Below, piece after piece: positions 26,962 through 57,071 of a DNA stretch of 62,857 nucleotides (position 1 is the first letter of the stretch; each line of letters starts with the position of its first letter). The DNA lies in contig JBDGSL010000011.1 in NCBI GenBank assembly GCA_042217555.1, positions 1-62,857 of the forward strand. Reading direction: 5' to 3'. The position numbers were made by a program, and so were the translations under genes. The stretch comes from Candidatus Nanohalobium sp. GTDB lineage: Archaea; Nanohalarchaeota; Nanosalinia; Nanosalinales; Nanosalinaceae. Under the pieces are notes generated by a model. It ran no database searches and was not told the DNA's origin. It saw only the letters and a list, made by a program, of their open reading frames with translations.

Positions 26962-27117
26962 TGGGTTCGCCCGGATTCGAACCGGGGATCTTCGCCTCTC
27001 CAATACGCTGTATTGGATCCGAGCAACGTCGGAATCCTACGTTGCGTTTGTAAGGGCGACGTCTTAGTCCAAAGCCAACAGAGCTGAACTTTGGATAACC
27101 AACTAGACCACGAACCC
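26962..27117 (-). tRNA. tRNA-Val(TAC) with two introns (~31 nt in the D arm, ~27064-27094; 51 nt at 37/38, 26998-27048)
   Basis: Spliced product GGGTTCG TGGTCTAGTTGGTTATGAC G TCGCC CT TAC AA GGCGA AGATC CCCGG TTCGAAT CCGGG CGAACCC A folds as a cloverleaf; introns are hairpins; first splice register uncertain by 1 nt. Confidence 0.92.
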
Positions 27118-28073
27118 ATGATACGGCACATCAAATTCGTTGCTCCCTGATTTTATAAGGGTGGTTGAACCAGCAGACGGTAGAGTACTGTTCTGTTTGT
27201 AGTAGCGGTATCTTTTAATATTGCGAGCGTTACTGCTTCCCACTTTCTCCATGAATTTGTCCAGTTTTTCTCTACCATAAAGTTGGACTCGGTCCTGAGT
27301 CCTATTTAAAGGCAGGTCTAAAGCGTTAACGGTTTTTCCAAGAAGTTGATGAGAGATTCGTTTTTAGCTGTTATATCCATCATGATACCGGAGTTAGGAT
27401 GCGAGTATACTCCTCCATCTGTGTCGAACAACCCTCTTATCGCCGGTTTGAGAAACTTCTTCTCATGGAGCGTCTCAGGGACTTGGATTTCTTTACCTGC
27501 TTTCTCTCCTTTGGGAAAGCCCTGATTTTTCAAATAAGCCGCTACCTTCCGGCTGTTAAGTATCAAACGTACAACATTCTCCTCACTCTGAAAGTAGATC
27601 TTTGGCTCTATATTGAAAATCGAAACACAAAGTTTCCCTAGATACCTGATGTATTCTTCGTCAAGTTCAGCATTGCCTGTGATACAGAAACCATTCATGT
27701 TAGAGTAAAGGCAGCCGTCACCAAGGAGCGCACCGTACAACTCAGCCAACTCCACATTCCAGTTATCAGGAGTTTTTCCTCTACGCTTTGATTTTGATCC
27801 GCCCTTTCTCTGACCATGCCACAGCGACAAAGTTTGGATTGACAGATCCATTTCCGACATTTCTTGAAGTTTTTCTGCGGCAAACAGCGGAATTGAATCC
27901 GCCTCATTCCTCCACCCCTGACGTGCAGTATAAGTGGAAATATCAAACCTTTGAGCAAAATACCTCCAAGTCCAGCCCTTGTCATTCTTCACATCTTCAA
28001 TCACAGAACCAATATCAGCCGACTCAAATACCGCCCTATCCTCCTTGAAACGACCATCACTGGTTCTATTCAT
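27103..28073 (-). pseudogene. Free-standing LAGLIDADG endonuclease with N-terminal HTH; frameshift at the A5 run (27333-27337)
   Basis: LAELYGALLGDG and IRGLFDTDGG motifs; adding one A extends the frame ~77 codons (..VQLYGREKLDKFMEKVGSSN..) to a TAG inside tRNA-Val. Real lesion or sequencing error. Confidence 0.85.
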
Positions 28074-28093
28074 AATTAACTAGACCACAACTC
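28073..28093 (-). repeat. Degenerate copy of the tRNA-Val 5' end
   Basis: GAGTT-GTGGTCTAGTTAATTATGA vs spliced tRNA GGGTTCGTGGTCTAGTTGGTTATGA; 11-nt exact core. Confidence 0.75.
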
Positions 28094-28132
28094 TTAATTC
28101 CAAAGAATCACCTTTAATGCTACCGGAAACCT

Positions 28133-31100
28133 CTACTCTACCTCTTTTTCCAGTATCGGGTCGTAGACTGTCTCCCCTGAGGAGTAGTAGGGATAGTAGA
28201 CCAGCGAGACTTCTGAGTCCGGGAACTGTTCTTCGACCTGTTCTCTGCTGACTTCTCTGTCGATGAGTTCATCCTTGTTGACATTGTCTTCTCCCATTTC
28301 CAGGTTGAAAAGAGACTCCACTACTTCTGTTCCATCTAGAAGATCTTTTTTCTGCAGTTCTTCGATTTTTGAGGCGACTTTTGAGATACCGACGTCAAGT
28401 TCGTCTACTATCTCCTGTTTGTCTTTTCCCTGCTTCAAGCGCTTGAATACTTTTTCGGTCAGGCCTGAAACCGTTTTCCTCTCCGCTTTCACCTGATCCT
28501 TTACGCCATCAACCAGTTTTTTCTCGTTCAGATCTTCTACGAGGTAGAACGGATAGTATGAACGGTTGAATTTCTCGCCGTACTCGCTTTCCACATCGGC
28601 CAGTTCTCTTCTTGGTTCAAAGAACTTGATCTTCTCTTTTTCTTGGTAGTTGTCTCCTGTCTGTGTCTCACCACCGTGCTTGGATTTTCTGGTCCGGACC
28701 TCGGTCATAACCGGATATTCGTTGCCAAGTGCGAAGCAGACTCCTGGCGGCAGCGACTTGATCATCGACTCAACCTCAGCGTTAATCCCTTCAAAAGACT
28801 TGGATATCGCCTTGATGTCGTTTGGATTGGTTACACGCAGGATGAACTGAGTATTACACTGGGAAAGCACGTTTTTATCGATACGTGCCGGTCTCTGACT
28901 TATTACACCTATTCCCAGACCGAACTTTCTTCCCTCAGACGCTATCTTCCTCATTATATCGTTACTGAGCGTCTGGCCGAATCCCTTCTCCGGTACAAAG
29001 TTGTGCGCCTCCTCCATTATCATGAGGAAGGGCGGAATCCTGTTCTCCTTCCTCAGATCGAAAAGCTTCTTTGCCAGCATGTAAGCCGTCATCTCAGTCG
29101 TATCAGGCTCCACAGCCTTCAAATTAATGATTGTAGCTCGGCCTGGCTCTACAAGATCCTCCAGATCAATCGGATTCGTGCTGAAAAGCCCAGACTCTTC
29201 CAGCTGCTCTAGATAGTTCAGCAGGTTCCATTTAGCGGTCGAATCCTCCTGCGAGACAGCGTCCTCAATGTCCACAAGCGAGTAATCCTCGTCTTTCTCC
29301 TTCAACCGTTTCAAAGCGTTGTAAAGCACCCCCATCTGCGAGTTAGTCAATGAGTCAGGTATGAGAGTCATCAGTTCCTTTTTACCAAGGTTTAGAGAGG
29401 AGAAACGGAGCGGCAACGCATCCTGATTGATGTCGGTATTTGGGGAAAACTCCTTGACCTTGTAGCTCTGCTGCTCCTCATCGTTCTCCGGGTTAGTATA
29501 CTGAAGAGAAGAATACTCACCGTGAGGATCCATGATAAGAACAGGAAAGTCGTCTTCAAGTAATTCCTCTATTATGACACCTGTGAGATAGCTGTTATGC
29601 GATACGATACCTCCGGTACCTGCGACAAAGTTATGATGTTCTCTAACAGTTAAATCGTAGACGTATCCGGAGTAATCTTTTTCCTCTATTGACACTATTT
29701 TATCCCAGTACAGGTCAGATTCTGCGAGGTCGCTGAATAACTGGCTATCAAGTTCTTTGGCCATGGCTGAAAACTTCTCTCTGGAAGGCCTTCTCTCATC
29801 TCTTTCATAGAGAGAAACTAGTGTTGAGTGCGAATCTATCTCCTCCGCCAGTTCTCTCTGTGAAACCCCAACCTTGTTTCTCTCCTTCTTGAGGTACTCA
29901 CCATCAAGAGGCACTACATCCGAGTTAGTGTTCCCGTCTTTTTCCCTAATATATTTCTCCAACTTCTCCTGTTTTCTCTCTATCCCGAAACCTATTTTTT
30001 CGGCGAACTTCTGCATCTGATCGACTCCGCTGATAGCCAACCTGTAGTAGGTGTCTCCTTCGTGATCAGAATTGGTAGCTCTCTTCTCTTTGGATGAGAT
30101 CCTGGAAACTATCCCGAAATCCAGAAGCAGGTAGCTCAACGAATTAATAACTTCTTTGCTCGCAGAAGAAAGAGTTATCTCGTGATCCTCCATACAGCCC
30201 TCACAGTCATAGAAAGTCCTCAAGAACTTTTTCTTTGATTTTTCTGAGGAACGCATAACTATATCCGGAACTTCTTTTTTCCTTGATCTCTGGAGAGTCT
30301 CATACCCCATATCCTCGAGCAAATGCTTCAGGGAGGTCGAGTCGATGTATTCTGCGTTTTCACTCATGCTCCGGGTTTCAAGGCCAAAAAGTTCCTCCGA
30401 CAGAGTCTCGAACCTCTGCATCAACCGATTATCATCATTAGTAAAGATAATTCTGTAACTTCCTTCGGCCTGCTGCTCCGTGCCTTCCGCAATGACCAAG
30501 CTGAGGAATTGTGCCAGTTCAGGAGAAAACATTCCAGGAACTTGAATGCCCTTTGCGTTCATCGATAAAGCCAGGCCAGAGTCCTCATCCGGAACATAGC
30601 CCTGATACTTCCAGTTCTCAATAGTGCTTCGTGAAACCTTCAGCTCTTCCTCCATCATGGAAATCGATTTACCTTCTTCCTCAAGTTCGCTGAACTTGTC
30701 GTATTGTTCCTGGAGATCTTCTCTTCTCTCCGATTCCTCTCCAGCTCTAGACCTAAGTCCTTCAGAAAGCTCCAGACTTTCATCCGGATTTGAAGATATC
30801 TCCCTCGGCACTGCTATGTGCTGACCCTCTTCAATCTCTTCAGAGTTAACAAAGCTGTAATCTTCCTCTGCAACCATCAGAGGATGTTCAGAAGTAACCT
30901 CTATTTCTCTACCAGAGGCAGTCTTCACTTTCAAAACTTTATCAGCTTTTTTACGGTAGGCATAGATCGCATCAGCGTCAGTGAAACTGTAGTTATCATC
31001 CAGAGCCTTCACAGAGCAATAATTCAGAATCCTCAGCTCTTCCTCATCATCCTCTTTAACTACCTGATCCGAACTATCAAATACTTCCTTGATCGGAACC

Positions 31101-31546
31101 GTGCTACCATCAGACATCAAAACATCTGTATCAGGAGTCACACACTTACCGGCGCCTGTCTGTGCTAACACTGCAAAGTGTTTGTAGAAGTCTTCCGGGT
31201 CGACATGGATGTCTATCTCCGGGTTTGTTTCCAGGTTTCCGATAGTCAGGCCTTCATCGTCCAGACCGAGAGTCTCAGAAATAAGTTCCTGGTCTGCCTG
31301 GTAGACGATGCTATCCGGTTCTATTACTCTTCTCGGCGCTTTTGTCAGTCCTTTGTCCCTGTATCCTATTATACTTGCTTTTGCGTATGTTTCTCCACTT
31401 GACTTTTTTGTCACTTCCTCTACCTGGGCGAGAATCCATTCTTCGTTGCTTTTTACTGATACAAAGTCGAATTTCTTTACTTCTTCCGTTGCACGGAACT
31501 TGAAGCTAGAAGTATCGACGTCTCCCTCTATGGTTCCTACCTGCAT
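28133..31546 (-). CDS. HerA/DUF87-family ATPase with intein
   Basis: HAS-barrel N-terminus, HFAVLAQTGAGK|SY, DPHGEY, EEAHNF, EGRKFG, SQRPA; start may be 31567 or 31573. Confidence 0.9.
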   Translation of the reverse strand: MQVGTIEGDVDTSSFKFRATEEVKKFDFVSVKSNEEWILAQVEEVTKKSSGETYAKASIIGYRDKGLTKAPRRVIEPDSIVYQADQELISETLGLDDEGLTIGNLETNPEIDIHVDPEDFYKHFAVLAQTGAGKCVTPDTDVLMSDGSTVPIKEVFDSSDQVVKEDDEEELRILNYCSVKALDDNYSFTDADAIYAYRKKADKVLKVKTASGREIEVTSEHPLMVAEEDYSFVNSEEIEEGQHIAVPREISSNPDESLELSEGLRSRAGEESERREDLQEQYDKFSELEEEGKSISMMEEELKVSRSTIENWKYQGYVPDEDSGLALSMNAKGIQVPGMFSPELAQFLSLVIAEGTEQQAEGSYRIIFTNDDNRLMQRFETLSEELFGLETRSMSENAEYIDSTSLKHLLEDMGYETLQRSRKKEVPDIVMRSSEKSKKKFLRTFYDCEGCMEDHEITLSSASKEVINSLSYLLLDFGIVSRISSKEKRATNSDHEGDTYYRLAISGVDQMQKFAEKIGFGIERKQEKLEKYIREKDGNTNSDVVPLDGEYLKKERNKVGVSQRELAEEIDSHSTLVSLYERDERRPSREKFSAMAKELDSQLFSDLAESDLYWDKIVSIEEKDYSGYVYDLTVREHHNFVAGTGGIVSHNSYLTGVIIEELLEDDFPVLIMDPHGEYSSLQYTNPENDEEQQSYKVKEFSPNTDINQDALPLRFSSLNLGKKELMTLIPDSLTNSQMGVLYNALKRLKEKDEDYSLVDIEDAVSQEDSTAKWNLLNYLEQLEESGLFSTNPIDLEDLVEPGRATIINLKAVEPDTTEMTAYMLAKKLFDLRKENRIPPFLMIMEEAHNFVPEKGFGQTLSNDIMRKIASEGRKFGLGIGVISQRPARIDKNVLSQCNTQFILRVTNPNDIKAISKSFEGINAEVESMIKSLPPGVCFALGNEYPVMTEVRTRKSKHGGETQTGDNYQEKEKIKFFEPRRELADVESEYGEKFNRSYYPFYLVEDLNEKKLVDGVKDQVKAERKTVSGLTEKVFKRLKQGKDKQEIVDELDVGISKVASKIEELQKKDLLDGTEVVESLFNLEMGEDNVNKDELIDREVSREQVEEQFPDSEVSLVYYPYYSSGETVYDPILEKEVE
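29594..31144 (-). mobile_element. 517-aa intein with LAGLIDADG endonuclease, inserted in Walker A
   Basis: GAGK/CVTPDT ... VYDLTV..HNFVA..IVSHN/S; LSLVIAEG and LRTFYDCEG motifs. Confidence 0.95.
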
Positions 31547-31630
31547 ACCCAGATTTTCTGAAGTCATATTCATAAATTCCCGTTCGTCTTCTAGGATGGA
31601 TTTAAGAAGGTAGAGGAGGAACCGGTTTAC

Positions 31631-32080
31631 ATGGAGTTTGAGTATCTGAACAGTCTGGAAGGCCTGCAGGAAGACATCTTCTACCTTGGAGTCATAGCAG
31701 TTATAGTAGTCTTTACCGGCGCCTTCCACAACCTTATAACACCTGACAGCTCTGTCAGGGTCGGATACGTAGAGGTAGAGACAGAATGTACAGGTATAGA
31801 CGCAGGGATATGTCTCGGTATACAGAGACAGGACCACACCACGTACAACTACGACAACTACACAGAAGTCGAGGAAGGAACCGAAAACTTCTACAGAAGA
31901 GTTGAAGCCGAGTTAATGGCCCAGGCCTACAACATCTGCAACACAGACATGAGCGGGATGGAGTGGACGGACCAGGCAGAGTACAGGAATCAGACAGGGA
32001 CAGAATGGCTGGAAAACAAGAACGTTGAGCTTCTTCCATGCGAGAGGACGTTTTACAGGAGCATCAACGCAACAGAGTGA
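31631..32080 (+). CDS. Hypothetical membrane-anchored protein
   Basis: One TM, four Cys, acidic. Confidence 0.7.
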   Translation: MEFEYLNSLEGLQEDIFYLGVIAVIVVFTGAFHNLITPDSSVRVGYVEVETECTGIDAGICLGIQRQDHTTYNYDNYTEVEEGTENFYRRVEAELMAQAYNICNTDMSGMEWTDQAEYRNQTGTEWLENKNVELLPCERTFYRSINATE

Positions 32081-54503: not shown

Positions 54504-55043
54504 TCACAGTTTTTTGTGCTCTACCTCGTAGTAAGTAACCTCGTTCTCCGTGTCGTTTACGGCCCAGAGCATGGATGCTCTGATGTTGTTAGCAAGTCTT
54601 ACCGCTCTGCTCATTTCCTGGAAGCTGAGAGTATGGTTCTCCGGAACAGCGTGGACAACATACTTGGTATGTTCTCTTTCCCGTTTGTCACCGCTCTTGT
54701 ACGGGTTAACACCTCTAGGATAGACTCTGAAATGCGCACCAAACTTGAAACCTGATTTTACGATATAACCTCTTTCACGCAGATCACTGTACGCAGGATA
54801 CTTGTAAGAAAACTCGTCATCTATCTCATCAAACCTTCTATAGGCTTCGTCACGGCCCATCTCGACGCCTTCAACCCGGAAGACCGTACCTCTGTCCATC
54901 AGGTGAAGAGCCTCACACGGAGAAAGCAGGAGAGAACCATCCTCCATGAACTTACCGTAGTACTTTTCATCATGTATCTCCTCCGCCTTTTCCTCTTCAA
55001 AAACCTTCACACCGTTCTCCGTAAACTCCGCTTCCACTTCCAT
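54504..55043 (-). CDS. endA: tRNA-splicing endonuclease
   Basis: EALHL, YSDLRERGYIVKSGFKFGAHFRVY..H, VTYY. Confidence 0.93.
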   Translation of the reverse strand: MEVEAEFTENGVKVFEEEKAEEIHDEKYYGKFMEDGSLLLSPCEALHLMDRGTVFRVEGVEMGRDEAYRRFDEIDDEFSYKYPAYSDLRERGYIVKSGFKFGAHFRVYPRGVNPYKSGDKREREHTKYVVHAVPENHTLSFQEMSRAVRLANNIRASMLWAVNDTENEVTYYEVEHKKL

Positions 55044-56796: not shown

Positions 56797-56918
56797 GTAC
56801 AATACCTCTTTTCTAGAGTTATAAAGCCTTTTATCAAGTTATAGAGCGCCGAGTTCTACCGCCTCTACCAATATGAATGGTTTAAAAGAGTAAATGCCGA
56901 CTTTATGATTACAATCAT

Positions 56919-57063
56919 AGCGGGGTAGAGCAGCCAGGAGTGCTCGTCGAGGTGTTCCGTTCCGTGCGGTTCGCCGCGAACGGCTCATAAGAACACTCCA
57001 TTTTAGCGATTAAACCTTATCTGAGACACCCGGAGGTCGCTCGTTCAAATCGAGCCCCCGCTA
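56919..57063 (+). tRNA. Initiator tRNA-Met(CAT) with two introns (56950-56981 in the anticodon stem; 56990-57027 at 37/38)
   Basis: Spliced AGCGGGG TA GAGC AGCCAGGAGT GCTC G TCGGG CT CAT AA CCCGG AGGTC GCTCG TTCAAAT CGAGC CCCCGCT A; A1-U72 and three G-C pairs mark the initiator. Confidence 0.92.
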
Positions 57064-57071
57064 TATTACGT

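Follow-up and report, generated by a model that had tools for sequence, protein, structure and literature searches.

Locus architecture

Contig JBDGSL010000011.1 of Candidatus Nanohalobium sp. (assembly GCA_042217555.1) was analysed over its whole length of 62,857 nt, here called the window, and the genome is referred to as G000. The locus of interest holds the 3′ part of a HerA-type ATPase gene, an open reading frame (ORF) for a LAGLIDADG protein and a gene for tRNA-Val(UAC). All features of the locus lie on the minus strand, and positions are given in window numbering (Table 1). The HerA stop codon was followed after 39 nt by a decayed copy of the tRNA-Val 5′ end, referred to as the remnant. 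Its last three bases, 28073-28071, form the ATG start codon of the ORF. The ORF in turn ends on a TAG at 27105-27103, which represents tRNA nt 13-15 and lies within exon 1 of the intact tRNA gene. Two copies of the tRNA 5′ end flank the ORF, the stranded one at 28093-28071 and the working one at 27117-27095. The same was found in the related genomes G001 and G064 and, by eye, in G063. The order HerA stop, remnant, ATG, ORF, TAG in exon 1 and D-arm intron was common to all four ORF carriers of the family. The ORF itself lies outside the D-arm intron and upstream of exon 1, and the 31-nt intron contains no ORF.

A sequence-only reading of the window had described a degenerate tRNA 5′ end whose ATG starts the endonuclease, a repaired ORF that stops on the TAG inside the intact tRNA 5′ end, a TATA-like box for the tRNA inside the 3′ end of the ORF, and a D-arm intron located where the remnant stops. 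Every one of these features was recovered at its described position on the minus strand. The remnant held up in a shuffle test (see below), the TAG within the tRNA recurred in all four carriers, the box TTATAAAA lay at the distance from tRNA nt 1 that is usual in the family, and the remnant ended at nt 24, two bases beyond the intron site at 22/23.

Table 1. Positions of the features described in the text, in window numbering.
Feature	Position	Strand	Basis
HerA-type ATPase gene (DUF87) with intein	28133..31837	-	ORF list; Pfam Intein_splicing, DUF87, LAGLIDADG_3
A/T-rich TATA-like box CATTAAAG upstream of the remnant	28112..28119	-	direct reading of the sequence
Remnant, decayed copy of tRNA-Val nt 1-23 (nt 24 at 28070)	28071..28093	-	local alignment score 28
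LAGLIDADG ORF, first frame, 251 codons + stop	27318..28073	-	Pfam LAGLIDADG_3
A5 run, probable single 1-nt frameshift site	27333..27337	-	three-frame translation
ORF continuation in shifted frame, 78 codons + TAG	27103..27339	-	three-frame translation
TATA-like box TTATAAAA, 33 nt 5′ of tRNA nt 1, inside the coding tail of the ORF	27151..27158	-	
tRNA-Val(UAC), intact gene	26962..27117	-	ARAGORN after in-silico intron removal
tRNA-Val(UAC) exon 1, nt 1-22 in tRNA numbering, 23 bases	27095..27117	-	identical to exon 1 of relatives
D-arm intron, 31 nt, tRNA position 22/23	27064..27094	-	missing from intronless orthologues
Exon 2, 3′ side of D stem through anticodon-loop nt 37	27049..27063	-	
Anticodon-loop intron, 51 nt, canonical position 37/38	26998..27048	-	
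Exon 3, 3′ side of anticodon stem, T arm, acceptor, discriminator	26962..26997	-	
tRNA-splicing endonuclease (EndA) catalytic domain	54531..54812	-	PF01974, 91.7 bits, above cut-off, in a 190-aa open frame

The interrupted tRNA-Val gene

No tRNA was detected by ARAGORN or Rfam in the raw sequence of the tRNA-Val locus, because the gene has two inserts. With both introns cut out by coordinates, ARAGORN returned a 74-nt tRNA-Val(tac) that differed by two mismatches from each of two intronless orthologues. A single further tRNA-Val gene, Val(GAC), was found in the assembly, which is 94% complete. Standard tRNA finders thus miss an essential tRNA-Val at this locus, and gene callers truncate or misread the ORF that overlaps it.

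G000 is a 1.3 Mb genome of a DPANN-type archaeon with intron-rich tRNAs. Introns of 33-268 nt were present in 34 of 42 ARAGORN calls. The 51-nt anticodon-loop intron of tRNA-Val is an ordinary feature in this genome, with 80% identity to the intron of G005, a member of another genus. G000 was the sole genome of the family in which tRNA-Val held both a D-arm and an anticodon-loop intron. Its T stem was of the CCGG type, against CAG/CTG in its three congeners. Relative to these, the tRNA-Val of G000 is a mosaic that combines the D-arm intron and ORF, as in G001, with the anticodon-loop intron and a differing T stem. The T-arm difference from the congeners would fit a short conversion tract.

The LAGLIDADG ORF and its product

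As assembled, the ORF is not intact in G000, through either a mutation or an assembly error. Three-frame translation of the assembled sequence showed that the frame switch must fall within 27361-27321, most likely in the A5 run at 27337-27333, where the orthologues from G064, G063 and the database are in frame. The part in the shifted frame encodes the end of the endonuclease core (GSSNARNIKRY), followed by a tail translated from the tRNA promoter, the leader and tRNA nt 1-12. Among the carriers, G064 held an intact open frame of 326 aa and G063 one of 334 aa, while the copies in G001 and G000 were interrupted by four stops and one frameshift, respectively. Intact orthologues in two relatives were 324-334 aa long and ended on the TAG inside the tRNA. 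The close full-length database proteins ended with G-F-(V/M)-V, the translation of tRNA-Val nt 1-12, in eight of eight cases. One close homologue is listed at NCBI under Candidatus Nanohaloarchaea archaeon. Three distant database proteins ended with G-(P/S)-V-V.

The window ORF matched Pfam LAGLIDADG_3 with 26.8 bits (cut-off 22.5). Besides a helical domain at the N-terminus, it has the two LAGLIDADG motifs LLGDG and DTDGG, and the catalytic acidic residues D119 and D220 were invariant among 19 aligned relatives. A profile search matched the endonuclease domains of V-ATPase inteins (E 8e-12). The AlphaFold model of the intact G064 orthologue had a predicted local distance difference test score (pLDDT) of 87.5 and supported the alpha-beta-beta-alpha-beta-beta-alpha double-domain fold of LAGLIDADG enzymes. 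The tail of the model was of low confidence, with means of 64, 44 and 47 for the 10-residue blocks from residue 301. It corresponds to the stretch in which the ORF runs through the tRNA promoter, the leader and exon 1, and it was conserved among the orthologues. In Foldseek, I-Tsp061I, I-DmoI and intein endonucleases matched the model with probability 1.00, the TM-scores on the target being 0.71 for I-Tsp061I and 0.65 for I-DmoI; WhiA and maturases such as bI3 were also among the matches. By its motifs, modelled fold and patchy distribution, the product is best classified as a putative monomeric, two-motif LAGLIDADG homing endonuclease.

The stranded tRNA 5′ end and the candidate promoters

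The remnant was tested by local alignment of the first 30 nt of the tRNA to the 1400 nt upstream, with 1000 shuffles. In G000, the remnant was the best local match, and its score was reached by 6 of the 1000 shuffles. The best match was also located directly 5′ of the ATG in G001 and G064, with scores reached by 52 and 84 of 1000 shuffles, respectively. In G063, the remnant was recognisable by eye and too decayed to be the best match. The similarity is short, with three substitutions and one missing base over 23 nt, which would leave room for chance or an assembly artefact. The shuffle result in G000 and the homologous remnants at the same place in G001 and G064, with a further one recognisable by eye in G063, reduce the probability of this explanation to almost nothing.

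The order of HerA and tRNA-Val(UAC) was conserved in 15 of 15 family genomes inspected. In 11 relatives lacking the ORF, the tRNA started 29-53 nt past the HerA stop; in the carriers, the remnant started about 37-45 nt past it. The stranded copy thus occupies the ancestral position of the tRNA start. Judged from alignment and synteny, the remnant is the original 5′ end of the tRNA-Val gene. The prediction of the sequence-only reading that the tRNA-Val of ORF-less strains starts where the remnant lies was borne out in these 11 relatives, and its view of an element inserted into an older tRNA-Val gene agrees with the HerA-tRNA-Val synteny and the matching distances from the HerA stop.

The working exon 1 was identical across the family and carries no signal of its origin. 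The promoter and leader in front of it accompany the ORF and differed from their counterparts in ORF-less alleles. The box TTATAAAA is a candidate for the working tRNA promoter. Its TATA-like counterparts were located at the same place in G001 (TTTTAAAA), G064 (TTTTAAGA) and G063 (ATTAAAAA). In ORF-less alleles, the TATA-like box ended about 28-34 nt 5′ of the tRNA. A second A/T box was present 44-47 nt 5′ of the ATG in three of the four carriers, with boxes similar to that of G000 in G001 and G064. The box may be the old tRNA promoter now serving the ORF, a weak reading given its short distance to remnant nt 1 (see below).

An apparent second tRNA-Val 5′ half in G012 (L009, G012:C98:4020-4212) was rejected as a scaffolding or assembly artefact, consisting of a run of N with repeated ends.

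Distribution within the family

Across 50 genomes of the family, tRNA-Val was intronless in 20, held only the anticodon-loop intron in 19 and held a D-arm intron in 10; one genome (G048) was untyped. The sequence-only reading had proposed comparing intron presence with ORF presence. Close orthologues of the ORF were found in 4 of the 10 genomes with a D-arm intron and in none of the 39 typed genomes without one. The carriers G000, G001, G063 and G064 belong to two genera, each of which also has ORF-less members, a patchy distribution like that of a mobile element. The further expectation that ORF-less strains would be intronless failed in six genomes (G002, G013, G019, G061, G062 and G065), in which the D-arm intron was present.

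A tree was calculated from the last 170 residues of HerA in 20 genomes. Intron-bearing alleles fell into three separate clades with intron-free genomes between them. G003 was sister to the trio of G000, G001 and G002 (100/99 support). The other carrier genus resolved as (G063,((G013,G062),(G064,G065))). Since the ORF was present in G063 and G064 only, this tree requires at least two gains or losses. The D-arm introns of G002 and G019 were identical at 32 of 32 nt despite the different genera, whereas those of congeners differed, which points to horizontal spread. The ORF of G000 had 57%, 60% and 54% identity to those of G001, G064 and G063, respectively. For the flanking genes, the values in the same order were 91%, 66% and 63% for HerA and 77%, 62% and 43% for PTH2.

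LAGLIDADG genes at other tRNA genes

Other free-standing LAGLIDADG genes of the family adjoined a tRNA gene in 13 of 14 loci. They were placed directly 5′ of tRNA-Leu and tRNA-Gln genes with D-arm inserts, convergently on tRNA-Met, or beside tRNA-Asp. Inspection by eye showed D-arm inserts in all nine loci in which LAGLIDADG gene and tRNA (Val, Leu or Gln) stood in tandem on the same strand. Other inserts were present in the tRNA-Met pairs with convergent orientation (L033, L038 and L041). Upstream of the ORFs at the tRNA-Leu and tRNA-Gln genes of the family, a copy of the tRNA 5′ end was found in none of five cases.

More distant relatives were examined with ARAGORN at 80 loci from public genomes of Woesearchaeota, Pacearchaeota, Nanoarchaeota, Micrarchaeota, Iainarchaeota, Hadarchaea and bacteria of the candidate phyla radiation (CPR). 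A metagenome scan with the nanohaloarchaeal alignment, in which the closest relative had 37% identity, served as a replication set only and provided another 80 loci. In 51 of the 80 genome loci and in 52 of the 80 from metagenomes, a tRNA on the same strand had its 5′ end between -30 and +50 nt relative to the ORF stop. A same-strand tRNA was overlapped further in 6 and 10 loci of the respective sets, the ORF ran antisense into a tRNA 3′ end in 7 and 4, and no tRNA was found by ARAGORN in 14 and 13. Another arrangement was recorded in two genome loci, and one metagenome locus was too short to score. Taking both sets of distant loci together, which come from DPANN archaea and CPR bacteria, the ORF stopped at the 5′ end of a tRNA in 103 of 160. 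The stop codon was usually supplied by the tRNA's own U8-A9-G10 or N13-A14-G15.

Upstream copies of the tRNA 5′ end were detected at p<=0.01 in 10 of 32 and 5 of 46 loci tested. In several loci, the copy was followed by a TATA-like box and then by the ATG of the ORF. At L125 (tRNA-Asp), the upstream copy was identical at 22 of 22 nt, and at L165 (tRNA-Gly) 25 nt were identical. Both of these fresh copies passed the D-arm intron site by 2-5 nt without interruption, whereas the working gene has an intron there. At both loci, the gene that was invaded lacked the intron, which lies on the cassette side. A separate observation concerned L050, in which a perfect 20-nt upstream copy preceded a mini-frame beginning ATGAAT that resembled the N-terminus of the family. 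A TATA-like box and the real start codon followed about 45 nt after the mini-frame, as if the ORF start had been duplicated.

Within CPR bacteria, the same protein family stopped inside or just before tRNA-Ser genes (L077, L085, L088, L095, L105 and L106). Further cases were L110, L114, L117, L123, L126 and many metagenome loci. The arrangement thus spans the divide between archaea and bacteria. A different configuration was seen at L086, from a metagenome-assembled genome of Nitrososphaerota. At about 1038-1970, a tRNA-Pro(ggg) on the opposite strand contained an 837-nt anticodon-loop intron with the LAGLIDADG ORF in antisense orientation. Here, a member of the family may genuinely reside within an intron.

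These loci also bear on the possibility that the LAGLIDADG protein has been domesticated, either as a WhiA-like DNA-binding regulator or as a helper in intron processing like the bI3 and I-AniI maturases. WhiA and the bI3 maturase among the fold matches and the N-terminal helical domain are compatible with such a role. Both catalytic Asp residues are invariant, however, and the gene is frameshifted in G000, has four stops in G001, and is absent from the six genomes with the same intron and from 39 with the same tRNA. In addition, the sub-branches of the protein family each adjoin a different tRNA, and they come and go. We regard domestication as very improbable and rejected it, the gene being broken or absent where the intron persists.

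The D-arm intron

Nine of the ten D-arm introns belonged to one type of 31-32 nt, while G063 had an unrelated sequence of 40 nt at the same position. A bulge-helix-bulge (BHB)-like motif was drawn by hand. In this motif, GGUU of the D loop and GACU of the intron form a 4-bp helix, with two 3-nt bulges and an inner helix. The GACU lies near the 3′ end of the intron, and G063 has GAUC there, so that the central helix covaries. Cuts after the second base of each bulge, placed by hand, yielded the exact mature sequence of the orthologues. In an alignment of nine sequences (eight distinct), 99% of cells paired, with two double-change pairs, a result reached by 13 of 500 shuffles. Removal of the intron restores a canonical tRNA, and a host EndA gene is present, which provided the single PF01974 match in the genome. 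The D-arm insert is a putative host-spliced BHB intron, and EndA would be the host enzyme that excises both introns of tRNA-Val.

An ORF without a D-arm intron was never seen in the family, as all four carriers have the intron. This association, together with the upstream copies at L125 and L165 that cross the site without an intron, makes it plausible that the intron breaks the cut site of the enzyme encoded next to it.

The alternative is that the cassette is correctly recognised and the D-arm intron unrelated to it. The intron would then have existed beforehand at a BHB-tolerant position 22/23, and the ORF would have arrived once by illegitimate recombination and be decaying since. The six ORF-less genomes with a D-arm intron are in line with this, as are two D-arm introns of G000 that have no adjoining LAGLIDADG gene, in tRNA-Gln(UUG) (C12:115150-115320) and tRNA-Glu(CUC) (C74:1-156), and the many ORF-abutted tRNAs without a D-arm insert, such as L051, L053 and most tRNA-Gln loci. 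Against an unrelated intron stand the co-occurrence in four of four carriers, one of which (G063) has a second, unrelated intron at the site, the end of the remnant at most 2 nt from the intron site, the intronless copies at L125 and L165, and the D-arm inserts in all nine tandem loci. Three D-arm introns were found among the tRNAs of G000, and this number also speaks against it; only cases checked by eye were counted, as the automatic classifier mis-parsed several tRNAs. Overall, an intron unrelated to the ORF appears unlikely.

Proposed mechanism

The locus is probably a free-standing LAGLIDADG homing-endonuclease cassette that was inserted into the D arm of the HerA-linked tRNA-Val(UAC) gene and brought along a substitute promoter and a substitute 5′ exon; its cut site is probably protected by the intron. 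The cassette would consist of three parts, the ORF, a new tRNA promoter within the last codons of the ORF and a new 5′ exon. The original nt 1-24 would have been stranded upstream, where they decay and supply the ATG of the ORF and perhaps a promoter. In the proposed cycle, the enzyme would first cut intronless tRNA-Val genes around nt 22-27. The left broken end would then pair with the HerA and remnant side of the donor, and the right end with the donor tRNA body. Through repair, the recipient would finally acquire the D-arm intron along with the ORF, the promoter and the 5′ exon. Immunity of the carrier would come from a stranded copy that lacks the right half of the target and a working gene split at 22/23 by the host-spliced BHB intron. 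Later, the ORF would decay, here by one frameshift, or alternatively be deleted between the 5′-end repeats, which would leave a resistant tRNA gene with an intron.

Several findings weigh against this cassette reading. The position of the target site is a guess. The presence of the D-arm intron in six ORF-less genomes means that the intron may predate the ORF, and the two D-arm introns of G000 that stand alone show the same separation of intron and endonuclease gene. Within the family, evidence for an intronless recipient is limited to two bases (GA), which are also constrained by the second codon of the ORF. At ORF-abutted tRNAs without an insert, immunity would have to come about by other routes, or the enzymes would be dead. 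No current homing is expected from G000 and G001, as the ORF is broken in both. The ORF identity of 57% within the genus is far below the 77-91% of the flanks and fits decay or separate acquisition alike; the identities do not separate the two, because the G001 copy is a pseudogene. As to splicing, the minimum free energy fold of the pre-tRNA selected another register with both bulges on one strand, and the outer helix of the drawn motif had at best 1-2 bp. The single EndA of 190 aa may be of a strict type. Against reuse of the old promoter, the distance from the A/T box to remnant nt 1 was about 15-26 nt, shorter than the promoter spacing of about 28-34 nt in tRNA genes of the family.

Gain of archaeal tRNA introns at odd positions and scattered tRNA fragments are old open questions. 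The 50 genomes of the family hold all stages: intronless genes, genes with the intron only, an intact cassette with intron and a decaying cassette with intron. With all stages side by side, it can be tested directly whether the intron is brought by a homing endonuclease. If true, this would provide a concrete route of tRNA intron gain. A selfish gene that is not itself an intron could invade an essential RNA gene by bringing a spare promoter and a spare gene start. More tentatively, non-canonical D-arm tRNA introns of DPANN and possibly other archaea might be delivered and kept by such LAGLIDADG cassettes, with the intron-bearing gene left after deletion of the ORF.

Comparison with known systems

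Collaborative homing in phages is similar in that a free-standing endonuclease gene lies beside its target gene, and that an intron at or near the cut site gives resistance and is co-inherited with the nuclease. The cyanophage endonuclease F-CphI and the psbA intron reportedly represent such a case. The phage systems differ in their self-splicing group I introns, their HNH, GIY-YIG or EndoVII-type enzymes and the lack of a duplicated gene end. Cleavage has been shown for them, while the tRNA-Val cassette is known from sequence, by the adjacency and the end of the remnant at the intron site. Accessible text describes collaborative or trans homing for T4 mobE with the I-TevIII intron (PMC2790892) and SegB as a free-standing endonuclease in the T4 tRNA gene cluster (PMC2330249).

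I-DmoI and I-Tsp061I, from BHB introns of archaeal rRNA, share the fold, the motifs and a BHB intron in a stable-RNA gene with the tRNA-Val cassette. Their ORFs are contained in the intron. At tRNA-Val, by contrast, the intron has only 31 nt, and the ORF is located outside it, 5′ of an exon that is duplicated.

According to the accessible text of PMC3630166, fungal mitochondrial mobile ORFs (mORFs) carry a substitute gene terminus, in atp6 of Allomyces macrogynus and in atp6, atp9, cox2 and nad3 of Glomus sp. As described there, a free-standing LAGLIDADG or GIY-YIG ORF lies inside a host gene and brings a replacement for the displaced gene part, the native part stays beside it as a diverging duplicate, and spread presumably begins with the cleavage of alleles that lack the ORF (PMC3630166). 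The host of the mORFs is a protein gene, and the substitute 3′ (C-terminal) end stands before the ORF (PMC3630166). The tRNA-Val cassette instead occupies a tRNA gene, and the substitute promoter and 5′ end stand after the ORF and overlap the ORF stop. It further differs by the host-spliced BHB intron predicted at the junction and by its occurrence in archaea and CPR bacteria instead of mitochondria. In the best-supported reading, that of a homing-endonuclease cassette, the tRNA-Val element is a mirror image of the fungal mORFs with a substitute C-terminus.

The nearest archaeal precedent was the insertion in tRNA-Thr(GGU) of Candidatus Caldiarchaeum subterraneum (Sugahara et al. 2012; PMC3293823). 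In the accessible part of that paper, an upstream 5′ tRNA fragment of nt 1-27, an 813-bp ORF directly 5′ of the tRNA and in the same orientation, a new intron at 24/25 and the coexistence of alleles with and without the insertion resemble the tRNA-Val locus (PMC3293823). The insertion there is 1.87 kb long with a repeated 545-bp region, and the ORF was called a putative DNA-binding/recombination protein by SVMProt (PMC3293823). It was read as a pNOB8-like or transposable element, and neither homing nor LAGLIDADG is mentioned in the accessible text (PMC3293823). The same layout, so interpreted in 2012 (PMC3293823), would favour a leftover of an integrase- or transposon-type element at the tRNA-Val gene, with the 5′-end copies as attachment-site repeats, and direct repeats of a tRNA part indeed flank about 1 kb. 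Yet the ORF fills the whole interval and encodes a LAGLIDADG protein, no recombinase domain was found with Pfam, and the same layout with only the ORF recurs in dozens of loci. An integrase leftover is hardly credible. It was rejected because no recombinase was found and the sole ORF between the repeats is the LAGLIDADG gene.

According to quotations in PMC4090602 and PMC4390854, Randau and Soll (2008) suggested that an intron shields its tRNA gene from elements that integrate there. Both ideas have an intron interrupting the target of a mobile element (PMC4090602, PMC4390854, accessible text). Their case concerns attachment sites of virus or plasmid integrases; the attacker here would be a putative homing endonuclease, and the intron would travel with it. 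In their accessible text, the reviews on tRNA introns and disrupted tRNAs cite only protection from integration, and the word 'homing' does not occur (PMC4090602, PMC4390854). The accessible part of a 2026 preprint on Asgard tRNA introns calls the question of intron arrival open. A description of LAGLIDADG genes abutting the 5′ ends of archaeal tRNAs was not found in the literature searched, whose coverage left out most subscription journals and supplements.

Further features of the window

The intein of the HerA gene has a LAGLIDADG domain and a helix-turn-helix domain of its own, so that two unrelated LAGLIDADG elements lie at most 4 kb apart. At 56918-57064 on the plus strand, ARAGORN called a 'tRNA-Stop(tta)', which by eye looks like a multiply interrupted tRNA-Met(CAT). 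In relatives, another LAGLIDADG sub-family ends convergently on the 3′ end of this tRNA.

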